Source of the DNA: a virus
IMG/VR virus record: IMGVR_UViG_3300030107_004423
Span: 18,924 to 82,923 of that record
DNA: 64,000 nucleotides
Reading direction: 5' to 3' (one strand)
Within the stretch, counting starts at the first letter, position 1. Each line of letters starts with the position of its first letter. Position numbers and translations under genes: made by a program. Shown here piece after piece: positions 704 through 64,000 of this stretch. The notes beneath the pieces are model-generated. The model searched no databases. It was not told the origin of the DNA and saw only the letters and a list, made by a program, of their open reading frames with translations.

Positions 704-1423
704 TTAAAATGTTCTATTGCTTGTATTTAATTCTGGATCTTGAGCTGATACAGAGCCCCTTGTCTTTATTGTCTCAGCTATATTCCATCTATATACTACT
801 GTTATATTAGTATCATCCATATTATCAGGAGTTGTAAGTTTTACAGAATATATCTTTCCCTTTGTTAATGCATTAGTACCTGAATCCATAGTACCTAATT
901 TCATTTCATGTACTGTGTTTGCAGCCAAATCTACAATCTCTTGTTTTGTACAAACAGGAGACTTAGCTACAGGCAATTCAGTGCCATCACTTTGCTCAAA
1001 TATTTCGTATTTTAATGGAGTAGTACCATCCGATATAGCATTCTCTGATCTAAACAATATCTTCATTATATGACCATTGTATGGAGCTAATAAAGTCAAA
1101 TGTTCATTAGCACCTGTTAGTGCTGTTCCTTCTGAAGTAGTTTGACTACTTAAAGGAATATAAGCAGTAGTACCAGCTCTATTAAAATTACATGTATGTA
1201 CTCCATAAGTATATATAGGTTTAATCATACCTCTATCTCTAGTCACTTTATTATAATTTCTTTTGTATATAGTATTTTCAACTCTAACATATTCAACTAA
1301 ACCTTCTTTAGTTACTCTTAACTCTGGAACTCCAATAGATAAATCAGAAAGACTAGGAACTCCTCTTCTTATTACTAGTTTATCTTGCTTTCTTTTTAAC
1401 TTATTTCTTAAAGTTTTATCCAT
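704..1423 (-). CDS. tail-associated protein; N-terminal ~60 aa homologous to 55851..56075, plus beta-rich C-terminal extension
   Basis: DKTLRNKLKRKQDK..GVPELR vs DRTIRNLIHKKQER..GVPEFR; TAATG coupling to upstream gene. Confidence 0.7.
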   Translation of the reverse strand: MDKTLRNKLKRKQDKLVIRRGVPSLSDLSIGVPELRVTKEGLVEYVRVENTIYKRNYNKVTRDRGMIKPIYTYGVHTCNFNRAGTTAYIPLSSQTTSEGTALTGANEHLTLLAPYNGHIMKILFRSENAISDGTTPLKYEIFEQSDGTELPVAKSPVCTKQEIVDLAANTVHEMKLGTMDSGTNALTKGKIYSVKLTTPDNMDDTNITVVYRWNIAETIKTRGSVSAQDPELNTSNRTF

Positions 1424-4400
1424 TAAATATTTTTCAACCTGTAAACTATAGATATATCATGTATTTTAAATGTACTTGGAACTTTAACAGATCCAGATTC
1501 TATTTTAAATCTTATAGAATAAGCATTAGTTATTTTAGCAGAAGGCTTTAATACAGCTATATGATCTCCTGCAGCACCTTCTAAATTACTATCAAATTGC
1601 AACCAACTACCAGTATTATTTACCATATAAACTACATCTGCATTTAAACTTGTACCTCCAGAATAAGCTATTATTAATTTGTATATATTCTTTCTTACTC
1701 CTGGAAATCCTAAATCATAATCTTTTGTTCTTATATCTAAATCACCTACTATAACATGCTGAGAATCATCAGTCCATTTAAAAACACTAGTATCACTAGT
1801 TGCTGTAGTGTTGCTAGTTTGAGTTATAAGCATTGTATTTGCACCATAAACTAGATCACTATTACCATCTACAACAAAATTAGTCTTATATGCATCTACA
1901 ACTCTTGTTTCTTCTAATGATTGCTGAGATCCTCTTGTCCATGATTTACTTATTGTATCATAAATAAAGCATCTTGGGTCTGTTGTACTACCACTAGATA
2001 TATCATCATAAACTATTATATGTGGACCTTTTGGAAAGAATCCTACCATAGGTGTTAATTCTGTTTCACCACTACCTGAATCTGATTTGTCTGCAACTAA
2101 AAAATCTTTCCATGTAGATAAGTCTATAACTCTTCCACCTTCTTCTCCTTCTTTGACAAATAAATCTTTTACATCTTCTCCATTATAATTAAATACTCCT
2201 AAATTATTTGCCCATGTAACTCCAAGAGAAGTTCTTGCTACACTAGCAGAATGCTTTACTCCCTTATACATAATAGTATCTTCCATAGTGGTTTTACCAT
2301 CTGCATCTATACTTAATATATGTAGCTTATTCTTTTTAAATTGTAATATTCTATCCCCATAAGATTCTAAATGTACTACCTCATCTCCATCTTGGATAGA
2401 AGCTTCATCTATCATATTTGAAGTAAATACATCATACCTATTAGGCCTAGATTTAATCATAGCATCAGGCATTTGAGTTTCATTACCTTCTCTATCTTTT
2501 ATAGTAACATTACCTATAACAACTCTTCTACCTAATATAGCTGCTGTTTTAAATTTTATTTCTAGATTTGGGTCTACTATATCATAACCAGTATTATCTT
2601 CATATGTTATTAATTCTGAGGGAGTAAATAAAGGCTCAGTCTCAGTATATAAAACTTCAGGATTAGTTTGCTCGGCTCCATTTGAATATCCTATAGCATG
2701 TTGCCATCCTTTAGTTGCATAAGTACCAGTAGACATATCCTTTATGCCTTTGTATAAATCAACTTCAGCTTGTAAATACCAAGTACTTGTACCAGCTTCT
2801 CTCATATATATATTTACACCTGTAATTCTATCATTCCAATACTTCAATTCATTGACACCTGTATACACACGTATAGATGCTTTATTACTAGTAAAGTTTC
2901 CATTCATTATATTGCCTAATTCATTACTAGTACCAAGACTTCCAGCTGTATCTCCATCGAAATTAAAGTGTGGATCTCCACTACTATTTTGAATAACATG
3001 CAAAGAAGATTCTTGTCCAGTAGGATTTTCATTATCATATATCAAACTATAAGCACAATTCCATACTCTATCCCATCCAGCTCCTTCGTCATTTTCAGTA
3101 GTATATAAAGCTATATCATCAGCATCTCCATTAGCACTATATAGCCTTACATGTATAGCATGTTTTTCAGAAGGCACACTTCCGTAATTTGTTGCAGTAC
3201 TACTTCCACCTGATCCATCTAAATCTGTCCCTGGATGTGTATTGCCACCTGATCCTGTTGATCTTGCAAGTACTGTAAATTCTGAGCTATGATCATTAGT
3301 CAATAACTCAGAAGGCCCTTTTACTTCTGCATCACCAGTATGCCAACCTTCAATTTTATATGATTGATCTACAGGATAAGGACTTCCACTTCCTTTATCT
3401 GTTGTATAATTAGTGCTAGATGCTGCGTGTCTATTCCCTGTATAATATCTTTCTTTATTTATGTATCCTAACCATTGTGTTGTATTAGAACCTGATGCAT
3501 CTGAACATCTTATAGCTCCATCCATATTATAATATACATGCTTAGCACCTGCAGTAGATCCCATGTCTAATACATTTGTGGATGACCAACTACTTAAGCT
3601 GTTATCATCAAAATACTTACTATGAACAAAGCTATCTGCATCCCCACTTGCATCACCTAGTATTAAATAATCATCTGTAGTATTAGTTTGATCTACAATT
3701 CTTAAATCTAAAGCTTCCATTATAAAAGATGGTCCAAATGTCAATGTTTGATTTGAGTTCGTTGCTGTAGTATCTGCACTTACTTTAAATAAAGTTGCAC
3801 TTATTATTTTTATAATAGTGCTGCCTGCTGCTATTCCTGTACCACTAACTGTCATACCTACAGCTAAATTTGCTGTGCTGTCACATTGAACTACATGAGG
3901 ATCACTTCCAAAAGTATCTTCAGAGCTTAAAGCTGAAGAATTAGTATCACAAGTAGCATCTGTAAATGAAGTGCTAGTTGCTGTTATTTTAAAATCACAA
4001 CTACCATCATTAACATCAGCATGAGATGTAACTAATACTTGATGAGTTCCAGGGGTACTTTTTCCAGCTAAAGCTACATTATCAGCAGCAAAAAATCCTG
4101 CACCACCAGCTAATACTAATGTATCTATTGTTCCTGCTACTTGTCTTAATTGATATGTAAAGAGATATGTAACACCACCAGTTGGTGTCTTTGTCCATTT
4201 ACCATCTATATCTTGTACTATTGTATTAGCACTAGCATTATGTTGATATAATATTTGAGTAGAGCTCCTACTAAATCCATTAGCAACAACCCAATCAGTG
4301 CCATTATCAAAACTTGAATAGCTATTAATAAGCATATTTCCTATAGAAAGATTTGCATATCTTTTATCATGAGGAAATCTATGTAAACCATATCCTGGAT

Positions 4401-4863
4401 TTATAGTAACTGTTGGTACTGTAGAATTAGCACCTTGTAAAGTAGCTACAACTAAATCAGCTGTATTAGATGTACTGCCAGGATCAGTAAATCTTATAGC
4501 TTCATCTACAACATACCCATTGCCTGGATTTGCTATTTCAAATGTAGGAATACCAGAAACATTTGTTGTTACCTTTACACGTAAGCCAACTCCACTACCA
4601 CTAGTACTTGTTTGTAAAAATGCTGTATGAGTTTGACTAGCCTGCCAAAGCCCGCTAGGAGTTGGAGTCAAATCATCTACAGTAAGTACACCAGTATCGC
4701 TAGAGCTATGAGCAATAGTACCACCCATAGTTCTGATTGTACCTTTCCTATCTACCATTATATCATCAGCTTTATATAATTCATTTTCAGCTAAATCTCT
4801 AATGTTAGTATGGGTATTTAATCCACCAGAAAAATCTATTTGCTTAAATATATCTTTAGGCAT
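1423..4863 (-). CDS. tail nozzle / stabilization-type protein, copy 1
   Basis: 1146 aa; N-terminal DFSGGLN..RDLAENE, C-terminal TKDYDLGFPGVRKNIYK..IHDISIVYRLK typical of podoviral tail tubular/stabilization proteins; homolog at 56075..59569. Confidence 0.75.
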   Translation of the reverse strand: MPKDIFKQIDFSGGLNTHTNIRDLAENELYKADDIMVDRKGTIRTMGGTIAHSSSDTGVLTVDDLTPTPSGLWQASQTHTAFLQTSTSGSGVGLRVKVTTNVSGIPTFEIANPGNGYVVDEAIRFTDPGSTSNTADLVVATLQGANSTVPTVTINPGYGLHRFPHDKRYANLSIGNMLINSYSSFDNGTDWVVANGFSRSSTQILYQHNASANTIVQDIDGKWTKTPTGGVTYLFTYQLRQVAGTIDTLVLAGGAGFFAADNVALAGKSTPGTHQVLVTSHADVNDGSCDFKITATSTSFTDATCDTNSSALSSEDTFGSDPHVVQCDSTANLAVGMTVSGTGIAAGSTIIKIISATLFKVSADTTATNSNQTLTFGPSFIMEALDLRIVDQTNTTDDYLILGDASGDADSFVHSKYFDDNSLSSWSSTNVLDMGSTAGAKHVYYNMDGAIRCSDASGSNTTQWLGYINKERYYTGNRHAASSTNYTTDKGSGSPYPVDQSYKIEGWHTGDAEVKGPSELLTNDHSSEFTVLARSTGSGGNTHPGTDLDGSGGSSTATNYGSVPSEKHAIHVRLYSANGDADDIALYTTENDEGAGWDRVWNCAYSLIYDNENPTGQESSLHVIQNSSGDPHFNFDGDTAGSLGTSNELGNIMNGNFTSNKASIRVYTGVNELKYWNDRITGVNIYMREAGTSTWYLQAEVDLYKGIKDMSTGTYATKGWQHAIGYSNGAEQTNPEVLYTETEPLFTPSELITYEDNTGYDIVDPNLEIKFKTAAILGRRVVIGNVTIKDREGNETQMPDAMIKSRPNRYDVFTSNMIDEASIQDGDEVVHLESYGDRILQFKKNKLHILSIDADGKTTMEDTIMYKGVKHSASVARTSLGVTWANNLGVFNYNGEDVKDLFVKEGEEGGRVIDLSTWKDFLVADKSDSGSGETELTPMVGFFPKGPHIIVYDDISSGSTTDPRCFIYDTISKSWTRGSQQSLEETRVVDAYKTNFVVDGNSDLVYGANTMLITQTSNTTATSDTSVFKWTDDSQHVIVGDLDIRTKDYDLGFPGVRKNIYKLIIAYSGGTSLNADVVYMVNNTGSWLQFDSNLEGAAGDHIAVLKPSAKITNAYSIRFKIESGSVKVPSTFKIHDISIVYRLKNI

Positions 4864-4881
4864 TCTTCTTCCTTAAAATTA

Positions 4882-4972
4882 TACTGGATGGGGTATATTC
4901 AACAATGATAGACCCACATGAACTTAAAGGAGTAGTGAACTTTTGCGGTTCAGTACATACCCCATACCAGTA
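4882..4972 (-). ncRNA. conserved structured intergenic element upstream of the tail nozzle gene
   Basis: stem TACTGGATGGGGTAT / ATACCCCATACCAGTA enclosing a loop conserved in the second copy (59579..59668). Confidence 0.55.
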
Positions 4973-4982
4973 ATATTTAAGT

Positions 4983-5162
4983 TTACTTGAGGATGACACC
5001 TTTAACCACAGCCTCAACTGATTCATAAATAGCTTCTATTATCTTTCCTTCAGTTTTTTCATTGATAATAGGTATATTTATATTCTCATTTAACTCTTTA
5101 ACCATTTTAGCTTTCATTTCATCATTAAAGATGTAGTTTGCTATCATATCCTTCATGTCCAT
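4983..5162 (-). CDS. small hypothetical protein, 59 aa (MDMKDMIANY..NENINIPIINEKTE..)
   Basis: AGGAG RBS; conserved in second copy 59675..59854; not in ORF track. Confidence 0.75.
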   Translation of the reverse strand: MDMKDMIANYIFNDEMKAKMVKELNENINIPIINEKTEGKIIEAIYESVEAVVKGVILK

Positions 5163-5172
5163 TTAACTTCTC

Positions 5173-5277
5173 CTATTTGCTTGACCATTCTCGCCATTTA
5201 ATCTTAACAGCTATATAGCATATCCATATAGGTATTGATATAAATATACTCTTCACTATAGCTATTAATAATTCCAT
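5173..5277 (-). CDS. 34 aa hydrophobic membrane peptide
   Basis: MELLIAIVKSIFISIPIWICYIAVKIKWREWSSK; TAATG-coupled; conserved at 59865..59969. Confidence 0.6.
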   Translation of the reverse strand: MELLIAIVKSIFISIPIWICYIAVKIKWREWSSK

Positions 5278-5507
5278 TATTGATTCTTCCAATATCTTTT
5301 TCTAGCCTTTGCTTCAAAATAATTATCAGTAGAATCTTCTGGAGCTAAGATGTATTTATCATTTATTAAATAAAAATCATCTTCTTCCCAACTACACACT
5401 AATCCTTCACTATCGTAATGCTCTTCAATCCTTGGATACATACAATTTAATCCTTCACCAATAATAGTAAAGGATATTGCATATGTAAGATAAGTAGTAA
5501 AATCCAT
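5277..5507 (-). CDS. small membrane/secreted protein (possible lysis accessory)
   Basis: N-terminal hydrophobic stretch, two Cys; near-identical copy at 60054..60284. Confidence 0.65.
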   Translation of the reverse strand: MDFTTYLTYAISFTIIGEGLNCMYPRIEEHYDSEGLVCSWEEDDFYLINDKYILAPEDSTDNYFEAKARKRYWKNQ

Positions 5508-5968
5508 TACTTTTTACCTCTTTTTAATGGTTTGTCGCTTCCCCATACTGCATCTTTATCAGTCTGTAATTCACACGTAGTTCCACCATCTCCACCAACT
5601 TCAACAACTTTATCATTTAATTTAACTTTCATTGGAGCTTTAGTTAAAACATAGTCCATTAATTTTTCTAGAGAATGGTTTGCAGCTTCATTAGCTTTAG
5701 CAGCATCTGATGGCTTTTCAGGTGGTGCAGTCATTTGTTGCAATACATTTATAAGACCTAAAGTAACAGTTGAAACTAAACCAGTAACTACAGCTAAAGC
5801 CTCAGACTTAAGGTAATAAGCAGAACCTACAAGAACTCCAACCATAATCATAATAGCTGGTACTGATTGTATTCCTACATAATATCGTAGTGAATCAGCC
5901 ATCATCCTTTTCTTAACTGCCCTCTCTTTTTTAATCTTATCTATTTCTTCTTTACTTAACTGAGCCAT
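5507..5968 (-). CDS. two-TM membrane protein (holin candidate)
   Basis: two hydrophobic helices, charged termini; near-identical copy at 60284..60745. Confidence 0.6.
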   Translation of the reverse strand: MAQLSKEEIDKIKKERAVKKRMMADSLRYYVGIQSVPAIMIMVGVLVGSAYYLKSEALAVVTGLVSTVTLGLINVLQQMTAPPEKPSDAAKANEAANHSLEKLMDYVLTKAPMKVKLNDKVVEVGGDGGTTCELQTDKDAVWGSDKPLKRGKK

Positions 5969-6743
5969 TTATCATTTCTCCCCATACGCTAGTTTTACCT
6001 TTTATTATTTCTACTACCTCTACTTTGAAATCACCATTCTTAAACCAATCAACTATAGCAAATGCATGATTCCAATTATGTAAATTACCTTTAAGCCATG
6101 TATTAGCTTCTGACTTCATATCCTTTAAACATCCAAGACTCCATGCTGACTGAGTACCACCTAATCCAGTCTCTGTAAATCTCTGTAAATCATGTGTATG
6201 TCCATATATAATATTTTCCTTATACGCTGATAAATGCTTTTTAGCGTGATGTATAGGAACATAATCACCATGTGTAAAGTTTAATTTGCCTATTTTGAGC
6301 TTATTAGTGCTTATATAGGGCCAATACTCATAACCTCTATCATCTAGCCTTAAAGCCTTTTTAGTCTCATATTGCGGCAAATATGGATGTTTATGTACAA
6401 AGTTATCCAACCATACTTCATGATTACCTTGTATGAAATGCCTTTCAGTACAATTTACTTTATTCAAAGAGCTGTCTATAATATCCATACCTTTGTTAAC
6501 CTGTCTCACTTCTTTGTTTAACATTGGTATTAAAACTTCTAATGGAGGTTTTTCTTTGTGCCTCCAGTGATGCGGACTGAATGTTTCCCATTCACCTGTA
6601 TCACCTAAATCTATATAGATATCGGGTCCTACTAACTCTATTGCTTTACATACTACATTTATTGCTTTTTTATCGTGTAACGGGAAATGCTTATCTGGTG
6701 TAACTATAGCTCTTTTTATTACACCATTTTTAACATTAGGCAT
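5952..6743 (-). CDS. calcineurin-like metallophosphoesterase, copy 1
   Basis: motifs DKH, GD, GNHE, HG, GHTH in canonical order. Confidence 0.85.
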   Translation of the reverse strand: MPNVKNGVIKRAIVTPDKHFPLHDKKAINVVCKAIELVGPDIYIDLGDTGEWETFSPHHWRHKEKPPLEVLIPMLNKEVRQVNKGMDIIDSSLNKVNCTERHFIQGNHEVWLDNFVHKHPYLPQYETKKALRLDDRGYEYWPYISTNKLKIGKLNFTHGDYVPIHHAKKHLSAYKENIIYGHTHDLQRFTETGLGGTQSAWSLGCLKDMKSEANTWLKGNLHNWNHAFAIVDWFKNGDFKVEVVEIIKGKTSVWGEMINGSVK

Positions 6744-6751
6744 ATAGCCTC

Positions 6752-6898
6752 CTATTTTATCTCTTTAAATATCTTTATACACATATAGATAAATGTTGCA
6801 ACCCCAACTAGTAAGCTTACCACTGGTGGTACCATTTCCATAAAAGATATCCAAAAACCTCCCATTCCAACTCCTGCTGTTCTTAATGTATCTGCCAT
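6752..6898 (-). CDS. 48 aa holin-like membrane protein
   Basis: MADTLRTAGVGMGGFWISF..SLLVGVATFIYMCIKIFKEIK; conserved at 61529..61675. Confidence 0.6.
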   Translation of the reverse strand: MADTLRTAGVGMGGFWISFMEMVPPVVSLLVGVATFIYMCIKIFKEIK

Positions 6899-8031
6899 TA
6901 TCTTATTCCTACTTTAGGAGCTTGTATTTGCCTTATAGTCTTAATTAAACTCCCATCGTACTTATCTATTTTCTTATAAAATTCTTTCATATAATATTCT
7001 TTAGCCTTAAACTCTCCTTGATCTTCCATAGCCCTAGCTTTCATATAGCATATTATAGCTCTACAAAGATATGGTGGTAAATCTAAATCAAAGTCCTCAT
7101 CTTCCATTACATTTACATCACTAACTAAATAACAATGATCTCTATATGCGCCATATATTAAAGCGCTAGAATTAGCAACTGCTGTAGTGTTAGGACTAGT
7201 ATCAACATATTCTTCTTCTACGCTTGTAATGCCTGCAGATTCATCTAATACTATAGGAACATAAACTTTATTTTTTATATACATTTGATGTTCTTCTTCT
7301 TGAGATCCATCTCCAACATCTATTGAATGTACTTGCCATAATCCTGCATTTAAAGTTGTAGTATTGTATATATAAATATAATCACCAGCCTCAAATATAT
7401 TACCAAGCCATATATTGCTAGCATTATTTGCATTAATCTTAGATAAAACAACTCCGCTTGTAGATAATGCTTCAGCTCCTATGTCTATATTAGAAGATCC
7501 TGTAACACCTGCTACTGTTTGGTTTACTTTTGTATAAGTTTGTATTAATCCGCCATTATCTACAGCTTGTACTTTATGAATACCATTCCATCTTGTGCTG
7601 TTTTTAATAAGTATATTTTCATTTACTGCTACTGCGCTATAAGGAGAGGATCCCCAATTAGGAGCAGTAGAAAGATGACTTCTAATAAATGAAAGGTATC
7701 CATCCTTTACAGTCCATCCATTTAACCAGAATTTATTAGACATATTTTTTAATTCATCGCTTACCCAATATGTAGGAGAATAAGCATATTCTATTTCTAA
7801 GCCATTTGTAATAGTCTCTAAAGGACTTTGCCATTCTTCAAAAGAACCTATAGAGCTACCACCACTACTTGGTATCCATTGACCGCCAGCAGCTTCACAA
7901 GCATCTTTAGTTGTATGGCTTCCTACAGTACAATGAGCTACAGCTTTAAATCCAGAAGATGATCTACTTTCAGATTCTACTATAGCAAGTTTATTACCTC
8001 TTATATAATATGCATATTTTTTAAATGCCAT
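6898..8031 (-). CDS. tail/neck structural protein with large internal insertion
   Basis: likely start MAFKKYAYY at 8031; N- and C-termini align with 121 aa ORF 61675..62040 (..YMKARAMEDQGEFKAKEYYMKEFYK..). Confidence 0.7.
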   Translation of the reverse strand: MAFKKYAYYIRGNKLAIVESESRSSSGFKAVAHCTVGSHTTKDACEAAGGQWIPSSGGSSIGSFEEWQSPLETITNGLEIEYAYSPTYWVSDELKNMSNKFWLNGWTVKDGYLSFIRSHLSTAPNWGSSPYSAVAVNENILIKNSTRWNGIHKVQAVDNGGLIQTYTKVNQTVAGVTGSSNIDIGAEALSTSGVVLSKINANNASNIWLGNIFEAGDYIYIYNTTTLNAGLWQVHSIDVGDGSQEEEHQMYIKNKVYVPIVLDESAGITSVEEEYVDTSPNTTAVANSSALIYGAYRDHCYLVSDVNVMEDEDFDLDLPPYLCRAIICYMKARAMEDQGEFKAKEYYMKEFYKKIDKYDGSLIKTIRQIQAPKVGIR

Positions 8032-8302
8032 CATTATCTCCTCTAGCAGGCTTATAAATACTTCTAGGTATACTTTCGTATTCATTTTCTGAATTATTTT
8101 GATTTTTACATCTAATATCTATAATTTTAATAGCATTATGAGGTATATCATAATATCTTTGATCTTTTTTTAAATCTTGTCTTTCTACTTCAATATGGGT
8201 CTCGCTTTTTAAATTTATTTCTTCCAAAGCATCTTCAATATAAGCTATAGCTAGTCCAGTTTGATTCATACCAGCTCTTTCCATTAATTTTTGAACTTTC
8301 AT
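8021..8302 (-). CDS. tail/neck structural protein, short form (93 aa)
   Basis: MKVQKLMERAG..AIAYIEDALEE aligns with termini of 437 aa ORF 62040..63353. Confidence 0.7.
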   Translation of the reverse strand: MKVQKLMERAGMNQTGLAIAYIEDALEEINLKSETHIEVERQDLKKDQRYYDIPHNAIKIIDIRCKNQNNSENEYESIPRSIYKPARGDNDGI

Positions 8303-9003
8303 TATCTACCGCCTCTTTGTTGTTTTTGTTGTGGAGGTTTTCCAAAAGAATTGCTATAGTCTGCTTTTAAAGATTCTAAATGAGTATTTAAAGTTCTTGC
8401 CAATTCACTATCTTCCTCTGTTATGTTAATTTCTGCAATCTTAGCTTCTATTGATCTTATAGCTGCAAAAGTAACTACTAAATATACCATTTCTGCAGGA
8501 AAATACTTAACATCATCATGAGTATTATTTAAAGCTACACCATTACCATCTACTGGACTATTATTAATATAGTACACTTCAATACCATTATTACTACTTG
8601 GAACAGGATATACATTTACAATACCAGTATCATCTAATACATAAGCAGGATGATATTGAGATGCATAATGTATGCTATCTTTATCTACTACTCTTGATTG
8701 TAGAGCTACACTTACTTTTCTACACTCTCTCCATGCAGTAGATCCATCTGAACTTCCATCAGCTCCAGCTTCCCTTAAAACTGTAAGTATCTTTGCTCTA
8801 CCTATTTCTATTCCTTGAGAATCACTTGCAGTTTTTCTTATAAAAAGATCAGCATCTTGAGGTCTTGATGCTATAATTTTATTAGTAACATCTATAACAC
8901 CATCTCTTAAGAATTGACTTAATTCTGTATTGTCTGGAGTAGTACCACTATCAGATATTGTTATTCCTGTTAAAGCTGATACTTGTGAATTAAAATTTGC
9001 CAT
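8302..9003 (-). CDS. head-tail adaptor / tail tubular-like structural protein
   Basis: directly downstream of capsid genes; ELSQFLRDGVIDVTNKII also at window end (63353..64000). Confidence 0.65.
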   Translation of the reverse strand: MANFNSQVSALTGITISDSGTTPDNTELSQFLRDGVIDVTNKIIASRPQDADLFIRKTASDSQGIEIGRAKILTVLREAGADGSSDGSTAWRECRKVSVALQSRVVDKDSIHYASQYHPAYVLDDTGIVNVYPVPSSNNGIEVYYINNSPVDGNGVALNNTHDDVKYFPAEMVYLVVTFAAIRSIEAKIAEINITEEDSELARTLNTHLESLKADYSNSFGKPPQQKQQRGGR

Positions 9004-9017
9004 TTATCTCCTAAGGC

Positions 9018-9061
9018 GCCCGCCCTCCTAGAAGAACCCATATCATTCCAGGAGAGCGAGC
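9018..9061 (-). promoter_or_regulatory. GC-rich stem-loop between capsid and neck genes (attenuator/processing site)
   Basis: 15 bp stem GCTCGCTCTCCTGGA/TCTAGGAGGGCGGGC on - strand with G-U pairs. Confidence 0.55.
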
Positions 9062-11896: not shown

Positions 11897-11898
11897 TT

Positions 11899-56075: not shown

Positions 56076-59000
56076 TATTTAATACCTTTCACTCTGTATA
56101 CTATTGATATATCGTTTATTTCAAATCCAGCAGGCACTGTGCCATCGCAAGTAAGTTTTAAAGCAAATGACTTAATATTATTTGCTTCTGATGATGTATT
56201 AGGCTTTAATTCCGCTATTGTCCAATTAGAATCTACATGAGCTAATTCATTGCTTGTAAAATTATCTCCATCTTTAAATACTTTTGAAAATGATTGAGCG
56301 CCATTTACATCATATTTAACTTGAACATTAGTAGTGCCACCTCCACTTTTATATGTAATATACACTTTATAAATCTTTTTTCTTACTCCTGGGCTACCAA
56401 AGTCAATATCCTTTGTTGTAAGTAGTAATTTGCCACTAGAAACAGTACTAGGAGATGGATTCCACTTTCTCATGTCTGCAGCTATTTGATATACTAAATC
56501 ACCATCCCAATCCAATACCATATTTGTTTTATTGGCAGCCTCAAAAGCTTCAGTACTTTTTGACCAAGACTGAGTAACTAAATCATAAATATATGCATCA
56601 GTTCCAGTTCCTAAATCATTAAATATTAAATGTTTTTCCTTAGGTATATACGATACATTTTGATTTGAAGTAATAAAGCTTCTCCATGTACTAGCTTTAA
56701 TTAATCTTCTTCCTTGTTTTTGTAACAAATCAACTACTTCTTTACCATTATATAAAAAAGCTCCATACTTATTAGCAAAAGCTATACCTATATCAGTTTT
56801 TGTAGAAGCATTTATATTAGATATACCTCTATGCTCTAAAGTATCTTCTAAAAATTCTATATCTTGTGATATATTTATTATGTGTAATTTATTCTCTTTA
56901 AATTGTAATATCCTATCAGCATATTCTTCTAGTTTAATTATCCTATCTCCATCTTGTACAGATGCTTCTACAAGTCTATCATTAGTAAATGTATCAAATC
57001 TATTAACATGGGATTTCATCATAGCATCAGTTTTTATATCTGTATGCCCAAATTCATCTACTATTTCAGGAGCGGCTATATATAATTTCCTATTAGCAAC
57101 TACACCAGTTCCATATTTAGGAGTTAATTGTAAGGCTGTTACATTATCATTAGGATATCCTGTTTCTAATTGATATGTTATTAATTCGCTAAAATCATCA
57201 TTAATAGTAGAGCAAGAAACACTTGTTGAATTATGAGCTACCCAAGGTTCAAAAGAAGTGGATGTTATAGCCTTTCCTCCTTTTTCTAAGTCATATCTAG
57301 ATTGTAAATACCAATCAGTACTTTCTTTATCATTTTCTCTAGCATAGACCTTAAACCCTGTTATTCTTGGATTAATATCATCAGGATTAGAAGCGTTAAT
57401 AATAAATTTCAATCTATACCCAAAGCCATCATATGCTTGTTGATCTCCACCACCACCACCTCCACTACCAGCTGTCCAATAAGTAACAACACCATCTCTA
57501 GATCCATTTTGATAAAAATTATTTATTTTATAAAGTGGAGATTCTTGAACATCATCATATATAGTAGTTACAGCAAAATCCCAATGTTTCTCTTTCCAAT
57601 TAGTTTCATAACCAGATTTAACATATTCTTCCATTGTAACTATTACACTGCCAGCCTCTGGTGGATCCATATCATTTACATAATTCTCTTTAAAATTAAA
57701 ATCAAACATATCATGAGCATCTAACCTGCAAACAGTATTCACCCATCTTTTTTCAGAATATGACAAAGGAAAGTTAGTAAATATTCTAAATGTTGCTCCA
57801 TCAGCATTAGTATTATCTGTAGCATTTTGACTTAAATCAAATTCAGTTGGACCAAACCCACCGTCACTTGCTCTGTTTTGTATTGTAGTTCCTGCAGGTA
57901 TTGCATTAGTACCATTAGTCTGTTCAATATACCATCCAGGCCTAATTGTCTTATCGATATCAAATACTTGTTGACCACTAGTACCTATATTAACTTCATC
58001 ATCACCAGAGTCGACAGAAACTGGAGATTGAGCTCCAGAACTTGGAAAAGTACCTGTTACCTCGGCTTGCTCAAAATTAACAAATCTTGTTCTATCTATA
58101 TAAGAATAAAAAATTCCAGGACTAGAATAGTTTCCATCAGTTATTCTTAATGTTCCATCTATTATAGTATAAAATGGTTTTGAATTTGCTCCACTTATCA
58201 ATCCTGTCATTCCTGAAGTCCATGCATTGTCATATACACTAAAAAAGTACGATTTTCCTGTAGCATCATTATCGTGCAATAATAAATAATTATCAAATTG
58301 TATTGGATGCTCTGGGTATGATAATGATTCAATATCAACCGATACATAAGAATCTTCTTTATCTGCAGAGACATCTCCTAAATCAACTGCTTTAATATAT
58401 AGCTTGTCATTTATAGCCCATGGAGTAGTACCATCATTTTTATATCCATTACCATTGGATGTTATAACTAAATTAGAACCTGCTTCGGTAGCAGTTGTGC
58501 TTCCAGTAGAATTTCTAACCATTCTAACTTGAAATCCATTTCTTTTACCTACATTCTTTAGTCTATATACTGTCGATTTGTTATCTGCAAAAGATCTTAA
58601 TATACCAGTAGAATTATTAGCCCAATAATAAGCATTTTTTTTAAGATTTCCATAACCTCCAGAAGTACCGTTTCTAAGACCACCACCTCTTACAGACATG
58701 TTTAATGCATCGTTATGATCTTGTACTCTATTCCAATGATCAGTACTTTCACTCATAAAGAAATATGCAGATCCAGATAAATCTTCATCAAAATCTCTCC
58801 AGCCAATAGAATCTTGATTTTCAACGCTCATTCCCATCCATCCTTCTAAATTCTTCCAATCATCATCTGTAGCTACTCTCCAACCACCATCTGGTGGAAA
58901 ATTAGCATGATTAATAGCTGCATGATTGTATAAAAATCCAAAAGTATCTTGATTTCCATCTACTCCATCTGGAAATGCTCTGTGAGGATTATTACTAGTT

Positions 59001-59569
59001 GTCCAAGTATCATCATTTGCTGTTGTAGCTTCAGTGCCATTTGTATTCCCATTTCTAAAATGAGTTGCTTTCCAATCTTGTTGCATCCAATCTAAATCAC
59101 CAAGTTTTATCCAAGTATAGCTATTTGTTCCATCCATAACTCCTGATGCTAATGTATTCGTACCAGCAATATATACAGTAGCTCTTATTCCAGAATCAAC
59201 AGTCCTATTAGTATCTTCATATAATGTTACATTTGTATAAGTTCCTGCTACTAAATCTGCTACATCTCCTGTATAGGACGCTGAATTAAAAGTATCTACA
59301 GTAGAAACTCCAGTGGCTACTGTAGGTAGTCCAGCACCTCTATAATCATGATTAAATTGAAACAATCCATAACCTGGATTTATATCAATATCAGATTTAT
59401 CAGAACTTAAAGATCTATCTGCATTTTTACCTACAGTTTTAATTCTACCTAAATCTTCAACAGATACACCAGTAGCTTCAACAAGCTCATTAGGAGCTAT
59501 ATCTCTAGCATCAGAAGCTTCGCTTATTCCACCTTCAAATCTATCTATTTTAACTATTTGTTTTGGCAT
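56075..59569 (-). CDS. tail nozzle / stabilization-type protein, copy 2, with inserted FISUMP-like domain
   Basis: aligns with 1423..4863 (INPGYGL, DAMMKS.VNRFD.FT, EASVQDGD, RILQFK.NKLHI, TKDIDFG.PGVRK.IYK). Confidence 0.75.
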   Translation of the reverse strand: MPKQIVKIDRFEGGISEASDARDIAPNELVEATGVSVEDLGRIKTVGKNADRSLSSDKSDIDINPGYGLFQFNHDYRGAGLPTVATGVSTVDTFNSASYTGDVADLVAGTYTNVTLYEDTNRTVDSGIRATVYIAGTNTLASGVMDGTNSYTWIKLGDLDWMQQDWKATHFRNGNTNGTEATTANDDTWTTSNNPHRAFPDGVDGNQDTFGFLYNHAAINHANFPPDGGWRVATDDDWKNLEGWMGMSVENQDSIGWRDFDEDLSGSAYFFMSESTDHWNRVQDHNDALNMSVRGGGLRNGTSGGYGNLKKNAYYWANNSTGILRSFADNKSTVYRLKNVGKRNGFQVRMVRNSTGSTTATEAGSNLVITSNGNGYKNDGTTPWAINDKLYIKAVDLGDVSADKEDSYVSVDIESLSYPEHPIQFDNYLLLHDNDATGKSYFFSVYDNAWTSGMTGLISGANSKPFYTIIDGTLRITDGNYSSPGIFYSYIDRTRFVNFEQAEVTGTFPSSGAQSPVSVDSGDDEVNIGTSGQQVFDIDKTIRPGWYIEQTNGTNAIPAGTTIQNRASDGGFGPTEFDLSQNATDNTNADGATFRIFTNFPLSYSEKRWVNTVCRLDAHDMFDFNFKENYVNDMDPPEAGSVIVTMEEYVKSGYETNWKEKHWDFAVTTIYDDVQESPLYKINNFYQNGSRDGVVTYWTAGSGGGGGGDQQAYDGFGYRLKFIINASNPDDINPRITGFKVYARENDKESTDWYLQSRYDLEKGGKAITSTSFEPWVAHNSTSVSCSTINDDFSELITYQLETGYPNDNVTALQLTPKYGTGVVANRKLYIAAPEIVDEFGHTDIKTDAMMKSHVNRFDTFTNDRLVEASVQDGDRIIKLEEYADRILQFKENKLHIINISQDIEFLEDTLEHRGISNINASTKTDIGIAFANKYGAFLYNGKEVVDLLQKQGRRLIKASTWRSFITSNQNVSYIPKEKHLIFNDLGTGTDAYIYDLVTQSWSKSTEAFEAANKTNMVLDWDGDLVYQIAADMRKWNPSPSTVSSGKLLLTTKDIDFGSPGVRKKIYKVYITYKSGGGTTNVQVKYDVNGAQSFSKVFKDGDNFTSNELAHVDSNWTIAELKPNTSSEANNIKSFALKLTCDGTVPAGFEINDISIVYRVKGIK

Positions 59570-59578
59570 ATTTAATTT

Positions 59579-59668
59579 TTGGGAGAGATGTATGTTATCT
59601 CAATAGTCGACCCACACGAACATAGAGGAGTAGTAAACTCAGGAAGCTCATAACATACTCCCTCCCAA
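59579..59668 (-). ncRNA. conserved structured intergenic element, copy 2
   Basis: stem TTGGGAG..GTATGTTAT / ATAACATAC..CTCCCAA enclosing conserved GACCCACA.GAAC.TA.AGGAGTAGT.AACT. Confidence 0.55.
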
Positions 59669-59674
59669 TATTCC

Positions 59675-59854
59675 TTACTTAAGTATAACACCTTTAACTA
59701 CAGCTTCAACTGATTCGTAGATAGCTTCAATTATCTTTCCTTCAGTCTTTTCATTAATGATAGGTATATTTATATTTTCATTTAACTCTTTAACCATCTT
59801 TTCTTTCATTTCATCATTAAAGATGTAATTAGCTATCATTTCCTTCATGTCCAT
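59675..59854 (-). CDS. small hypothetical protein, copy 2
   Basis: homolog of 4983..5162. Confidence 0.75.
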   Translation of the reverse strand: MDMKEMIANYIFNDEMKEKMVKELNENINIPIINEKTEGKIIEAIYESVEAVVKGVILK

Positions 59855-59864
59855 TTAACTTCTC

Positions 59865-59969
59865 CTATTTATTTGACCATTCTTGCCATTTAATCTTAAC
59901 AGCTATATAGCATATAAATATCGGTATTGATATAAATATACTCTTTACTATAGCTATTAATAATTCCAT
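59865..59969 (-). CDS. 34 aa membrane peptide, copy 2
   Basis: homolog of 5173..5277. Confidence 0.6.
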   Translation of the reverse strand: MELLIAIVKSIFISIPIFICYIAVKIKWQEWSNK

Positions 59970-60040
59970 CACTTCTTCTTACCTGTTTTTTTCTTTTTAG
60001 GTCTTCCTGGTTTTTTATATGTTCCTGGCCCTTGAGGCAT
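59969..60040 (-). CDS. 23 aa basic peptide (AT-hook-like GRP)
   Basis: MPQGPGTYKKPGRPKKKKTGKKK with AAGGAG RBS; absent from copy 1. Confidence 0.6.
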   Translation of the reverse strand: MPQGPGTYKKPGRPKKKKTGKKK

Positions 60041-60053
60041 ATTGTTCTCCTTT

Positions 60054-60284
60054 TTATTGATTATTCCAATATCTTTTTCTAGCTTTTGCTTCAAAATAAT
60101 TATCAGTAGAATCCTCTGGAGCTAAAATATATTGATCATTTATTAAGTAAAAATCATCTTCCTCCCAGCTACATACAAATCCTTCACTATCATAAGATTC
60201 TTCTATCCTAGGATACATACAGTTTAATCCTTCACCAACAATAGTAAATGATATAGCATAAATAAGATATGTAGTAAAGTCCAC
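60054..60284 (-). CDS. small membrane/secreted protein, copy 2
   Basis: homolog of 5277..5507. Confidence 0.65.
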   Translation of the reverse strand: MDFTTYLIYAISFTIVGEGLNCMYPRIEESYDSEGFVCSWEEDDFYLINDQYILAPEDSTDNYFEAKARKRYWNNQ

Positions 60285-60745
60285 TACTTCTTACCTCTTT
60301 TTAATGGCTTATCACTTCCCCATACTGCATCTTTATCAGTCTGTAATTCACAAGTAGTTCCACCATCTCCACCAACTTCTACAACCTTATCATTTAATTT
60401 AACTTTCATTGGAGCTTTAGTTAAAACATAGTCCATTAATTTTTCTAAAGAATGATTTGCAGCTTCATTAGCTTTTGCAGCGTCTGATGGTTTTTCAGGT
60501 GGAGCAGTCATCTGTTGCAATACATTTATAAGACCTAAAGTAACAGTTGAAACTAGTCCAGTAACTACGGCTAAAGCCTCAGACTTAAGATAATAAGCAG
60601 AACCTACAAGAACTCCAACCATAATCATAATAGCTGGTACTGATTGTATCCCTACATAGTATCGTAAAGAATCAGCCATCATTCTTTTTTTGACTGCTCT
60701 GTCTTTTTTAATTCTATCTATTTCTTCTTTACTTAGTTGAGCCAT
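60284..60745 (-). CDS. two-TM membrane protein, copy 2
   Basis: near-identical to 5507..5968. Confidence 0.65.
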   Translation of the reverse strand: MAQLSKEEIDRIKKDRAVKKRMMADSLRYYVGIQSVPAIMIMVGVLVGSAYYLKSEALAVVTGLVSTVTLGLINVLQQMTAPPEKPSDAAKANEAANHSLEKLMDYVLTKAPMKVKLNDKVVEVGGDGGTTCELQTDKDAVWGSDKPLKRGKK

Positions 60746-61520
60746 TTATCATTTCTCCCCATACACTAGTTTTACCCTTTATTATCTCTACTACTTCTAC
60801 TTTAAAATCACCATTCTTAAACCAATCAACTATAGCGAATGCATGATTCCAATTATGTAGATTTCCTTTAAGCCATGTATTGGCCTCTGATTTCATATCT
60901 TTTAAGCATCCTAAACTCCATGCACTTTGAGTGCCTCCAAGGCCTGTTTCTGTAAACCTCTGTAAGTCATGTGTATGTCCATATATAATATTTTCTTTAT
61001 ACGCTGATAAATGCTTTTTAGCGTGATGTATAGGAACATAATCACCATGTGTAAAGTTTAATTTGCCTATTTTGAGCTTTTTGGTACTTATATAGGGCCA
61101 ATATGTATAACCCCTGTCATCTAGCCTTAAAGCTGATTTAGTCTCGTAAGCAGGCAAATATGGATGCCTATCAACAAAGTTATCTAACCATACTTCATGA
61201 TTACCTTGTATGAAATGCCTTTCTTTACAATTTATTTTATCCAAAGAGCGATCTATAATATCCATACCTTTGTTAACTTGTTTAACTTCTTTATTTAACA
61301 TTGGTATTAAAACTTCTAAAGGAGGTTTTTCTTTGTGCCTCCAGTGATGAGGACTAAACGTCTCCCATTCTCCTGTATCGCCTAAATCTATATAAGTATC
61401 AGGCTTTACTAATTCTATTGCTTTGCAAACTACATTTATGGCTTTTTTATCATGTAACGGGAAATGCTTATCTGGTGTAACTATAGCTCTTTTAACTACA
61501 CCATCTTTAACATCAGGCAT
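60729..61520 (-). CDS. calcineurin-like metallophosphoesterase, copy 2
   Basis: same motifs as 5952..6743. Confidence 0.85.
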   Translation of the reverse strand: MPDVKDGVVKRAIVTPDKHFPLHDKKAINVVCKAIELVKPDTYIDLGDTGEWETFSPHHWRHKEKPPLEVLIPMLNKEVKQVNKGMDIIDRSLDKINCKERHFIQGNHEVWLDNFVDRHPYLPAYETKSALRLDDRGYTYWPYISTKKLKIGKLNFTHGDYVPIHHAKKHLSAYKENIIYGHTHDLQRFTETGLGGTQSAWSLGCLKDMKSEANTWLKGNLHNWNHAFAIVDWFKNGDFKVEVVEIIKGKTSVWGEMINGSTK

Positions 61521-61528
61521 ATAGCCTC

Positions 61529-61675
61529 CTATTTTAGTTCTTTAAATATCTTTATACTCATATAGATAAAAGTTGCAACCCCAACTAGTAAACTCACTAC
61601 TGGTGGTACCATCTCCATAAAAGATATCCAAAATCCTCCCATTCCAACGCCTGCTGTTCTTAATGTATCTGTCAT
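61529..61675 (-). CDS. 48 aa holin-like protein, copy 2
   Basis: homolog of 6752..6898. Confidence 0.6.
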   Translation of the reverse strand: MTDTLRTAGVGMGGFWISFMEMVPPVVSLLVGVATFIYMSIKIFKELK

Positions 61676-62040
61676 TATCTTATTGCTATAGGTGCTTGCA
61701 TAATTCTAACGCTACCTATTTTATTACTTTCTGTTTTATCTATTAATTTATAAAATTCTCTCATATAATATTCTTTAGTTTCAAAATCGCTCATATCTTC
61801 AGCAATTCTTGCTTTTAAATAATAAACTAAAGCTCTAGCTATTGCATTGCTTATATTTGATATTTCATCTGATTCATCTGATATAGGACTACCATCTACT
61901 GCTTTTGGTACGTATGTATATGTAATATCTATAGATTCTGAAATATTTTCAACTGGAGATTTCCATTCTCCATCATCTAATTCTACTATAGCTAAACTTT
62001 GACCTTCCCAATAATATGCATATTCTCTAGAAGCACCCAT
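61675..62040 (-). CDS. tail/neck structural protein, short form
   Basis: homolog of 6898..8031 lacking the insert. Confidence 0.7.
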   Translation of the reverse strand: MGASREYAYYWEGQSLAIVELDDGEWKSPVENISESIDITYTYVPKAVDGSPISDESDEISNISNAIARALVYYLKARIAEDMSDFETKEYYMREFYKLIDKTESNKIGSVRIMQAPIAIR

Positions 62041-63353
62041 TATAAATTATCCTCATCTGTAATTGTTGGTCTTCCTATAAATCTAGGAATAGATCTTCTT
62101 TTGTCAGTTTCATTTAAATGATGTTTTACTTTTACATCTAAAACTCTTACTACTTCTTCTGGAAGATCATAAAATCTTTTATTTTTTACTATGTCTATAT
62201 ATTTATTACCTACTCCTTTTAAAATTATATTATTAGAAGAGTTTTCTATAAATGTAGACAAATTATTAGAAGATGCAGTTCCGCCTAAATATAATTTAGT
62301 GCCATCTGAACTAGCACCATGAACATTATAATATCCATTTGAAAAAGTATTATCTGAATTACTATCAATACCAACAGAATTTTCTATTGTTAATTTAGAT
62401 CCTGATTCAAATTGAGAAAAAGAAGAGGCTGATGAAGTATCTGTAACTTCTGTAAGTATTGGGGATATTCTCCAATTATCTAATGTGAATTTACATGTAG
62501 TACCTGCATTATGCATCCATACAAAAAAATAATGCTCTGATGCAGTCGCCTTAAATCCCCATTTATTTTCTATTGTATCACTTGTTTTTCCTATTGGTAT
62601 TATAGATCCTTTTTGATCTAGTGGGGTAGATAATTGTCCATCTATCGGTTTAGATCCAAATGTTTGAGGACTAAAACTAGAATGAGCATTATCACCAGCG
62701 GTTATTGCTTTAGCACAAATTACTTCAGTTTGATATTGTTGATTATCTGCTTCCCATGGAGTATACCACCATGCTGTTTGACCAGCAGCATCGCTTGATG
62801 CTCCCTTATATGTAGATATAGTTGCGTATGCATTTGTATTAGCAATGCTTAGAGTACTGTCAAATTCCCATAAATAATTATCTCCAACTACCAAATTACT
62901 TACTTTATATCCAACACCAAAAACACCACCAACGCCATCTACTCTCCATTGCAAATCAGTCCCACTACTTATATAACCTTGATAATCAGTTCCATTGCCC
63001 ACATCTCCAGTTGCATTGACAGGTATATAATTAAACCTAAAAAACCCAGAAGGAGGATTATTTCTATCTACATATGTTGGAAACGCAGTTCCTCCAGCCC
63101 ATCCAAAATCACTATTTCTAGGCATAATTCCACTACCTAAAGCTCCTATATCTAGTGGATCTTGGTGACTAGCGCTTTTTATATGAGGAGCAAATTTAAG
63201 GGTATTACTTTTTAACAATACCTCTGATTTGGATCCTTTTTTTACATTTATAGAAGAATACATATTCATTTCTTCTAAACCATCTTTTATATATGCTATA
63301 GCTCTACCAGTTTGATTAATACCAGCTCTTTCCATTATTTCTTTAACTTTCAT
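62040..63353 (-). CDS. tail/neck structural protein with large internal insertion
   Basis: termini homologous to 8021..8302. Confidence 0.7.
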   Translation of the reverse strand: MKVKEIMERAGINQTGRAIAYIKDGLEEMNMYSSINVKKGSKSEVLLKSNTLKFAPHIKSASHQDPLDIGALGSGIMPRNSDFGWAGGTAFPTYVDRNNPPSGFFRFNYIPVNATGDVGNGTDYQGYISSGTDLQWRVDGVGGVFGVGYKVSNLVVGDNYLWEFDSTLSIANTNAYATISTYKGASSDAAGQTAWWYTPWEADNQQYQTEVICAKAITAGDNAHSSFSPQTFGSKPIDGQLSTPLDQKGSIIPIGKTSDTIENKWGFKATASEHYFFVWMHNAGTTCKFTLDNWRISPILTEVTDTSSASSFSQFESGSKLTIENSVGIDSNSDNTFSNGYYNVHGASSDGTKLYLGGTASSNNLSTFIENSSNNIILKGVGNKYIDIVKNKRFYDLPEEVVRVLDVKVKHHLNETDKRRSIPRFIGRPTITDEDNL

Positions 63354-64000
63354 TATCTACCTCTCTGAGCTTGTTGCTTAGGAGCCATAACTCCAAAAGC
63401 TGTATTGTATTGTTCTTTTAAATTACCTAAATTAACTGATAAAGCTTGCACTAATTCTATATCTTCTTCATCTATAGTGTATTCAGCTAGTTTAGCCTCT
63501 AAAGACTTTATAGCTGCATATAGAACTACTAAATAAACTTTATCATCGGGGAATATACCTATATCACTATGAGAATAAACTAATGCTGATCCACTTTTAT
63601 TATAAGGGATATTATTTACATAATAAACTTTAAATTGATTTGGGTCCGATCCTGGTGCTGGAAATACACTTATTTTTCCATTTTCTAAGCATGTGTATGC
63701 AGGATTAAATTTAGAAGCATAATCTAAGCTTTCTGAATCTGTAACTAAATATTGTCTTGACGGATCTATTTCTCTACAAGGCCTCCAATTATTAGAAGTA
63801 ACTCCATCTTCACGAACTACAGATATAATTTTAGCTCCATACAAATTCAAACCATTTGCAGTTTGGTCGCTACTTTCTGCCATAAAATGCTTGGTTTGTT
63901 TAGGATCTAAAGATATTATTTTGTTAGTAACATCTATAACTCCATCCTTTAAGAATTGTGATAATTCATTTTGAGTTGGATTTGTAGCGTCTGTAATACT
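63353..64000 (-). CDS. head-tail adaptor-like protein, copy 2 (5' truncated by window edge)
   Basis: frame open to 64000 (SITDATNPTQNELSQFLKDGVIDVTNKII); homolog of 8302..9003. Confidence 0.75.
   Translation of the reverse strand, partial: SITDATNPTQNELSQFLKDGVIDVTNKIISLDPKQTKHFMAESSDQTANGLNLYGAKIISVVREDGVTSNNWRPCREIDPSRQYLVTDSESLDYASKFNPAYTCLENGKISVFPAPGSDPNQFKVYYVNNIPYNKSGSALVYSHSDIGIFPDDKVYLVVLYAAIKSLEAKLAEYTIDEEDIELVQALSVNLGNLKEQYNTAFGVMAPKQQAQRGR

Follow-up and report, generated by a model that had tools for sequence, protein, structure and literature searches.

A 1.5-lap marine podophage record in IMG/VR is very probably an inter-strain chimera rather than a genome with a duplicated tail module

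Gene content of the window

The window, that is, the whole stretch of 64,000 nucleotides analyzed here, is the final 64 kb of a single 82,923-bp IMG/VR virus record (IMGVR_UViG_3300030107_004423). Its features are collected in Table 1. The record starts in the middle of a helicase gene and contains neither N nor an obvious scaffold gap. We compared about 45 of its proteins with PHROGs and Pfam, and most were without a match. An ERF recombinase and an Hjc-like resolvase were recognized by Pfam, as an earlier sequence-only reading of the window had proposed. In the late-gene block that occurs twice, the lap-2 protein of 1164 aa carries a Fib_succ_major domain (PF09603). The conserved core of this block encodes proteins of 59, 76, 153, and 263 aa; the 263-aa protein is a metallophosphoesterase (phrog_221, E = 3.8e-26), the 153-aa protein has two hydrophobic helices, and the two small ones have no recognized function.

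The sequence-only reading had labeled the repeated block a tail/lysis module. No lysin was recognized in it, and because PHROGs and Pfam left most proteins without a match, these labels are backed for only a few genes. Searches of the record found no integrase (PF00589, PF00239), tRNA, or serine invertase, nor did they show host genes in any part of the 83 kb or inverted repeats of at least 40 nt. A blastn search of window positions 4900-9700 against 50,697 GenBank phage records returned no match.

Table 1. Coordinates of features in the window. A and B denote the two genotypes to which the record is assigned; lap 1 and lap 2 are the two passages through the genome unit.
Feature	Position in window	Strand	Basis or remark
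Strain A segment, low-abundance genotype	1..16288		Runs left to record base 1, 18,923 bases before the window
Putative crossover zone in the terminase large-subunit gene	16289..17622		A and B (near-)identical; assembly would pass from A to B
Strain B segment, abundant genotype	17623..64000		Reaches the record's end
Lap-1 (strain A) late-gene block	704..9003	-	ORF list, pairwise blastp; proteins of 239, 1146, 59, 76, 153, 263, 395, 93, 233 aa
Lap-2 (strain B) late-gene block	55851..64000	-	ORF list, pairwise blastp; proteins of 74, 1164, 59, 76, 153, 263, 121, 437, 176 aa
Conserved core, strain A allele	4983..7063	-	85-88.5% nucleotide identity to 59675-61837
Conserved core, strain B allele	59675..61837	-	Nucleotide and amino acid identity, dN/dS, high-depth letters of run X1
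Strain B early/replication genes	35673..39081	+	Helicase C-end, DUF932, Hjc-like resolvase (Pfam hits)
Strain A copy of early/replication genes	record bases 3-3550, before the window		Self-blastn, 82-85% nucleotide identity
Terminase large subunit	16162..17715	-	phrog_38, E = 8e-75; single copy in the record; holds the joint
Portal protein, strain A allele	12909..15212	-	phrog_156, E = 1.5e-58
Major capsid protein, SU10 type, strain A allele	10337..11896	-	PF17236, E = 5e-20
1822-aa tail fiber, strain B	18183..23651	-	C-terminal endosialidase-chaperone domain, PF13884 at residues 1705-1778
2830-aa giant virion protein, strain B	42036..50528	-	Positional equivalent of strain A's 2980-aa protein before the window

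Extent and divergence of the repeat

Whole-record self-blastn showed that the record comprises 1.52 laps of a unit of about 54.6 kb. Record bases 3-3550 match 54596-58004, and bases 23826-27848 match 78524-82890, both at offsets near 54.6 kb, with the two units collinear and in the same orientation. Because the record ends match, including the first 3.5 kb, which precedes the window and aligns with window positions 35673-39081 at 82-85% nucleotide identity, the first 28 kb of the record is syntenic with the last 28 kb, and synteny holds throughout this overlap. The repeat is therefore broader than a tail/lysis module: it spans 28 kb at both record ends, includes the giant virion protein as well as replication genes, and covers all that the record's span allows, not just a cassette.

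Within the window, the similarity between the copies is far above chance. Self-blastn and a repeat search aligned 5277-7063 with 60054-61837 (88.5% identity over 1787 nt, E = 0) and 4903-5303 with 59601-59994 (85.0%), and further matches link 8213-8686 with 63264-63740 (68%) and 2308-2468 with 56870-57030 (73%), the offsets between copies ranging from 54,562 to 55,051. Neither a near-exact terminal repeat at the record ends nor any exact word longer than 84 nt common to both copies was found, in line with the earlier view that this is not an exact terminal repeat. The record was also checked for ending on a shared graph node, and it does not: each end matches its partner at about 85% identity and not exactly.

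The recurrence of the genes in 704-9003 at 55851-64000 was confirmed, but nine homologous pairs were detected rather than the roughly eleven first counted. The description of a core nearly identical in protein and altered mostly at synonymous sites held up well: in pairwise blastp the 153-aa pair differs at 2 residues (98.7% identity), and its gene has 29 synonymous and 2 non-synonymous differences (dN/dS 0.016). The 59-, 76-, and 263-aa pairs are 96.6%, 90.8%, and 93.5% identical, and dN/dS across the conserved core genes is 0.016-0.086. The helicase C-end, which lies outside this block, is 97.5% identical in amino acids between strains A and B. The flanking genes are as strongly diverged as had been stated, with 36% identity across about 490 residues for the 1146/1164-aa pair, 43% for the 233/176-aa pair, and only partial matches for the 395/121- and 93/437-aa pairs. 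The giant virion proteins of 2830 and 2980 aa share only 26% local identity and are equated by position and synteny.

Comparison with related phages

Five relatives in IMG/VR are 50.4-54.5 kb long and 95-100% complete according to CheckV, and the record exceeds them all. Three of them (52,096, 54,531, and 54,476 bp), compared over their whole length, match one lap apiece, and one relative assembles as a circle with a 127-bp end overlap. Marine podophages of about 52-55 kb in IMG/VR (IMGVR_UViG_3300030329_003551, 54,531 bp; IMGVR_UViG_3300025168_000009, 52,096 bp) have the same gene order, with terminase proteins 84-87% identical to that of the record and portal and SU10-type capsid regions at about 55-85% in translated blast segments; unlike the 1.52-lap record, they hold one lap each. 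In none of the five complete relatives was the 153-aa core protein detected. Among cultured phages no close relative was found, the best terminase identity being 25%.

Another relative, L090, carries the lap-2-type 176-aa gene at 98% nucleotide identity, followed by a capsid, portal, and terminase set, and this arrangement is the natural continuation past window base 64000. Since L090 is 98% identical in this one gene and 82-89% elsewhere, mosaic exchange takes place among the relatives. No A-type relative turned up in IMG/VR or in metagenome contigs: the 233-aa gene of strain A had no match in IMG/VR, and in metagenome contigs the best portal match was 86% in amino acids.

Read depth of the two copies

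We examined the abundance of the two copies in X1, the presumed source run, which contains 98% of the words sampled from 54001-64000 and in which each depth is one mean per Logan contig. The exact-match contigs covering 6974-16318 have depths of 14.6, 14.7, 12.9, 13.5, 12.6, and 13.6, whereas the contig at 17623-24800, which covers the 1822-aa fiber gene, has a depth of 47.1 with zero differences from the record. Between them, the contig at 16289-16894 has a depth of 57.9, roughly what 13.6 and 47.1 add up to, as though A and B were counted together. The low- and high-depth series overlap by 30 nt (16289-16318), which is the behavior of k = 31 unitigs at a branch. Such a coverage step, here from about 14x to about 47x, is what the sequence-only reading had named as refuting a real duplication.

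The repeated core gave a similar picture in a letter comparison covering 30 listed X1 variant rows. At nine of the ten core places listed (5224-6761), the alternative letters of X1 are those of lap 2, with depths of 33.5-51. The exception, 5430, has the reference letter in V2 and an alternative at a depth of 5. The lap-1 letters have depths of 14-20 at eight of the nine matching places, mostly 14-16 and 20x at 6628, and at 5714 no depth remains for the lap-1 reference letter. The depths of strain B alleles scatter between 33 and 51. The two core alleles are about three-fold apart, and this inequality means that the copies are not present 1:1 on one molecule. Three further runs, X2-X4 (seawater, 2025), contain only relatives and B-like pieces and were excluded from the verdict.

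Location of the strain switch

An independent IMG/VR contig, L001 (IMGVR_UViG_3300044448_003043), marks a breakpoint in the single-copy middle. Per 200-nt bin, its identity to the window is 76-90% up to 16200 and 97.5-100% between 16400 and 18000; mismatches are dense up to 16288 and are followed by 500 mismatch-free nucleotides. The joint would thus sit in a stretch that is common to both genotypes and exceeds the assembly word in length. At all nine places listed within 14124-15571, the alternative letters of X1 (depth 35-96) are the letters of L001. Strain B's own capsid-side sequence is therefore in the sample, while it is absent from the record. We also considered a middle part (27.9-54.6 kb of the record) identical in both strains. 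For its left portion this does not hold, as X1 contains another version of that portion at higher abundance.

Taken together, the depth step, the unequal copies, and the L001 breakpoint indicate that strain A has been joined to strain B. The crossing would have been made through the near-identical terminase stretch and may lie anywhere in 16289-17623. Right of the joint, X1 shows minor variants only, with a depth of 11.8 at 19559 and 24.5 at 18043. As the continuation of strain A is seen only weakly there, A might equal B beyond 16894.

This uncertainty bears on a variant of the same explanation, in which strain A is a natural recombinant that is B-type from 16289 for many kb and the artificial switch lies further right; the record would still be a chimera. 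The depth of 57.9 at 16289-16894, near the sum of the two genotypes, and the lack of a clear A-specific continuation accord with it, and if B alone were at about 33.5, as in the core contig at 5370-5537, the 47.1 could represent A and B together. However, most B-specific alleles left of the joint are at 35-49x, near 47.1 by themselves, which leaves little room for an added 14x, and at 19559 the 11.8x variant may represent the fiber allele of strain A itself. We regard this variant as unlikely, though the least improbable of the alternatives.

Origin of the record

We conclude with high confidence that the record is an inter-strain chimeric contig, an assembly artefact of two co-occurring phage strains of about 54.6 kb each, and that the duplicated tail module is not a real biological feature. 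Of the two options weighed in the sequence-only reading, a map of about 55 kb continuing into a related strain is supported by the single-lap relatives, the unequal depths, and the L001 breakpoint, with one refinement: the switch probably falls in the terminase large-subunit gene and is not at the repeated module.

In the scenario we favor, a single uncultured lineage of marine podophages would have been present in the seawater source sample as two or more genotypes, with strain A at roughly 14x and strain B at roughly 35-47x. Because the DNA of these two diverges by more than 10% along most of the genome, each would have been assembled as a separate path, except in a terminase stretch of about 500-600 nt from window position 16289 that is (near-)identical in both. 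The assembler may have followed A from record base 1 to window position 16288, entered the shared stretch, and exited along B, then kept to B's map, circular or permuted, over the next 47.7 kb. On this path it would have met again the early genes, giant virion protein, tail genes, and core already crossed in A, hence the 1.52 laps and a "second tail module" that is the other strain's allele.

Assemblers are documented to build chimeric contigs when similar viruses co-exist in a sample (Roux et al. 2017, PeerJ, PMC5610896). The present record resembles such chimeras in that the joint would lie where 500-600 nt of the terminase gene are identical and in that its two sides are unequal in depth. 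It differs in extending past a full lap of the circular or permuted map, and so has the look of a large diverged duplication and not just of two mixed partial genomes. Concatemer-type and direct-terminal-repeat assemblies are likewise longer than the unit and carry the same genes one unit apart, but their repeats are exact; the copies here are only 68-88% identical in DNA, which points to two genotypes and not to one sequence assembled twice.

The other option, two tail cassettes in one genome, belongs with the readings that place both laps on one real molecule, either as a true two-cassette genome of more than 83 kb or as a hetero-concatemer or recombinant dimer that arose when A and B infected one cell together. 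The ungapped record and the mosaic exchange among relatives are compatible with such a molecule, and the encoded ERF recombinase and Hjc-like resolvase make recombination between co-infecting strains plausible. Against it, the copies are about three-fold unequal in X1, depth steps within the single-copy middle, B's own capsid-side sequence is present at B's depth, and the repeat fills all the available span. Moreover, complete relatives that share these capsid and portal genes reach only 50-54.5 kb, and by headful and capsid-size logic a molecule of 83-109 kb would probably not fit the same head. Mu/P1-type invertible tail-fiber cassettes likewise place two versions of host-recognition genes beside a conserved segment, but such systems have inverted repeats and a site-specific invertase and carry the two versions on the same molecule. 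None of this was seen here, and the present repeat also takes in 28 kb of unrelated functions. We consider a single real molecule highly improbable. The same low standing applies to its most specific form, a hetero-dimeric intermediate of replication or recombination between co-infecting strains, joined via the terminase stretch by ERF/resolvase homologous recombination and caught in the sample, which, if true, would be direct evidence of module swapping under way in the ocean.

Tandem polylysogeny yields head-to-tail arrays of related phages, and the collinear, equally oriented units resemble one, but a record cut from two such prophages in a bacterial chromosome is the most remote of the explanations, given the lack of a tyrosine or serine integrase, tRNA, or host genes in the 83 kb, a unit boundary without an att-like junction, a start inside the helicase gene, the unequal depth of the two units, and a relative that assembles as a circle.

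Implications for the lineage

The record merits a flag as a chimera of two strains that spans 1.5 genome lengths. Left unflagged, it would inflate genome-size estimates, suggest gene duplications, and mislead lineage clustering for phages that are abundant in the sea but uncultured. As a by-product, it allows two genotypes from the same water sample to be compared cleanly. The replication genes and the 2-kb core, with its metallophosphoesterase and small membrane protein, are under strong purifying selection, whereas between these conserved parts the tail genes and the giant virion protein have been replaced almost beyond recognition. Such replacement is the usual pattern of host-range module turnover.

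Contig architecture and gene content

The record holding the window is one contig of 82,923 bp, classed in IMG/VR as linear; the window spans its bases 18,924-82,923. In a whole-contig self-comparison, contig 3-3550, which precedes the window, matched contig 54596-58004 (window 35673-39081) at 82-85% identity, and the two helicase copies shared 97.5% identity over their last 201 residues. Between such conserved islands the gene order was kept and the proteins were nearly unrelated (e.g., 1034 versus 905 aa and 2980 versus 2830 aa). The repeat therefore extends beyond the tail module: the contig makes 1.52 laps around a ~54.6-kb unit. We refer to the rarer genotype, in its left part (including lap 1), as strain A and to the abundant one, in its right part (including lap 2), as strain B. 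As the sequence-only reading had stated, this is not an exact terminal repeat: the longest exact word common to both laps was 84 nt. The G+C content of the window was ~33%, and searches of the phage sequence for an integrase and tRNAs found none.

Laps, genes and assembled contigs of metagenome run X1 (window positions unless marked contig)
Feature	Position	Strand	Evidence or depth
Lap-1 sequence	contig 1-27.9 kb		
Single-copy middle	contig 27.9-54.6 kb		
Lap-2 sequence	contig 54.6-82.9 kb		
Late genes, first block	44-27417	minus	
Early genes	28063-39286	plus	
Late genes, second block	39319-64000	minus	
SU10-type major capsid protein	10337-11896	minus	PF17236
Portal	12909-15212	minus	phrog_156
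Large terminase	16162-17715	minus	phrog_38, E=8e-75
1822-aa fibre, endosialidase-chaperone end	18183-23651	minus	
Small terminase	26680-27417	minus	family match
ERF	33269-33733	plus	
DnaB-like helicase	34542-36293	plus	
DUF932 protein	36466-37251	plus	
Hjc-like resolvase	38754-39080	plus	
X1 exact-match contig	6974-9039		depth 14.6
X1 exact-match contig	9036-10409		depth 14.7
X1 exact-match contig	11087-11698		depth 12.9
X1 exact-match contig	11678-12270		depth 13.5
X1 exact-match contig	13713-14732		depth 12.6
X1 exact-match contig	15764-16318		depth 13.6
X1 contig	16289-16894		depth 57.9
X1 exact-match contig, 7.2 kb, no difference	17623-24800		depth 47.1

The 1146-aa protein (1423-4863) and the fibre have a module of ~88 aa in common, 49% identical, at residues 58-142 and 1340-1427, respectively. 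The fibre gene is repeat-rich, and contigs from three 2025 seawater runs (X2-X4) contained many joints there that jump forward or backward by 0.1-3.5 kb (e.g., 19060 to 21099), which suggests NxAIG-type repeat length variants among relatives or repeat-induced misalignment.

Comparison of the repeated late-gene blocks

The diverged recurrence of the tail-gene block is a real repeat, confirmed by blastn and by protein pairs. Nucleotide identity was 88.5% over 1787 nt between 5277-7063 and 60054-61837, and 85% between 4903-5303 and 59601-59994, with weaker flanking self-matches at 2308-2468, 8213-8686 and 8872-8925. The core proteins were nearly identical, as first noticed from the sequence (153-aa pair 98.7%, two differences; 263 aa 93.5%; 76 aa 90.8%; 59 aa 96.6%), and the core changes were indeed mostly synonymous (dN/dS 0.016-0.086). 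The flanking tail genes proved strongly diverged (1146/1164 aa 36%; 233/176 aa 43%), and the 395/121-aa and 93/437-aa pairs matched only partially. Synteny held, with nine detectable pairs rather than about eleven, and the "lysis" label drew no support from any family match.

The core encodes a metallophosphoesterase (phrog_221). Its most conserved protein, of 153 aa (5507-5968 and 60284-60745), has two hydrophobic helices with a charged tail after them and could, by inspection, be holin-like; it matched no family, and none of five complete relatives had a homologue. Between 6898-8302 and 61675-63353, the 437-aa protein is matched at its two termini (1-38 and 368-437) by the 93-aa protein, whose 395-aa neighbour resembles the 121-aa protein only over its own C-end; one domain appears to lie in different neighbouring genes of the two strains. 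In the 1164-aa strain-B protein (56075-59569), residues 154-352 form a Fib_succ_major domain (PF09603) that is missing from the 1146-aa strain-A allele, and the pair is alike only over the C-terminal ~490 residues, at that 36% identity.

Unequal depth of the two laps

The presumed source sample is public run X1, a marine metagenome from 2014 that contains 98% of the words sampled from 54001-64000. Its Logan contigs were compared with one 20-kb stretch, window 4801-24800, at a likeness of at least 80%; depths are one mean per Logan contig, not raw reads. The exact-match contigs fell into two depth classes, and the last low-depth and first high-depth contigs overlap by 30 nt, as unitigs of 31-mers do at a branch. 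The depth of 47.1 is not inflated by conserved words, because the 7.2-kb contig spans the strain-specific fibre gene. A coverage step, set beforehand as the sign against a real duplication, was thus found in the single-copy middle.

Among the 30 X1 rows compared, from a variant table more than 5011 rows long, ten listed places fall in the repeated core. At nine of them the alternative letter (depth 33.5-51) was the lap-2 letter; at position 5430, the tenth, the reference letter was carried by V2, as labelled in that comparison. Lap-1 letters had depths of 14-20x, mostly 14-16x, at eight of the nine matching places, and at 5714 no depth remained for the reference letter. Because lap-1 and lap-2 letters differ in depth in this way, the two core copies are about three-fold apart in abundance.

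Position of the strain switch

A different metagenome yielded the 4.9-kb IMG/VR contig IMGVR_UViG_3300044448_003043 (L001), which aligns to 13959-18789. In 200-nt bins its identity to the window was 76-90% up to 16199 and 97.5-100% over 16400-17999; the last dense mismatch, at 16288, is followed by 500 mismatch-free bases, and this break coincides exactly with the start of the high-depth X1 contig. Left of it (14124-15571), the more abundant X1 alternative letters (depth 35-96) were those of L001 at all nine listed places, indicating that the abundant genotype has its own L001-like portal-side sequence, which passes without a break into the sequence at the right of the window. The left-hand sequence of the window is the rarer genotype's. 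Since X1 contig 16289-16894 differs from the window twice, as does L001 in that span (16789 and 16840), the crossing may sit slightly right of 16840, and we place it only within 16289-17623.

Relatives and unit size

Five IMG/VR relatives measure 54,531, 54,116, 54,476, 50,384 and 52,096 bp (CheckV 95-100% complete), the last assembled as a circle given its 127-bp end overlap. Each of the three compared at full length aligns with a single lap; metagenome contigs of 51.6-55.0 kb, plus one of 60.2 kb, also exist. The terminase is carried by >599 IMG/VR contigs from marine samples. Tara and JGI contigs also represent the lineage, which is abundant in marine metagenomes and widespread among them. 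No close cultured relative was found (terminase identity at most 25% with GenBank phages), nor any close relative of strain A in the collections searched (IMG/VR and metagenome contigs). IMGVR_UViG_3300030329_001651 has the lap-2-type 176-aa gene at 98% nucleotide identity with a capsid/portal/terminase set upstream; read from this contig, the natural continuation past 64000, where a second capsid/portal set had been proposed as a check, is such a set. The same contig is a mosaic: it is 98% identical to strain B over that gene but outside it reaches just 82-89% with either strain, so gene-sized pieces have been exchanged within the lineage.

A chimera of two co-existing strains

Of the two earlier proposals, a contig running on into a related strain is supported and can be made more precise. 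Strain A (~14x) supplies contig 1 to window 16288 (35.2 kb), and strain B (~35-47x) supplies ~47 kb, beginning at some point in 16289-17623 and ending at window 64000. The 7.3 kb of B that the contig lacks, corresponding to 8960-16288, would close a ~55-kb circle, consistent with the relatives. The stretch 16289-16894 would be common to both strains, its depth of 57.9 lying near 13.6 + 47.1. Strain A may also be naturally identical to B some way right of 16289, with the artificial switch further right; the contig would still be a chimera. Three observations contradict a single real molecule carrying both laps: the copies differ in depth, the sample also contains strain B's own version of the capsid side, and relatives that share the capsid genes have ~54-kb genomes. 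As for tandem prophages, neither an integrase nor an att junction nor host DNA is present. Virome assembly has a documented error in which similar viruses that co-exist yield chimeric contigs (PMC5610896). The apparent "duplication" is not a genuine feature of any genome.

What the contig still offers is a comparison of two genotypes from one sample: the replication genes and the 2-kb core of both are kept under strong purifying selection, while the giant virion protein and the tail genes undergo exchange.
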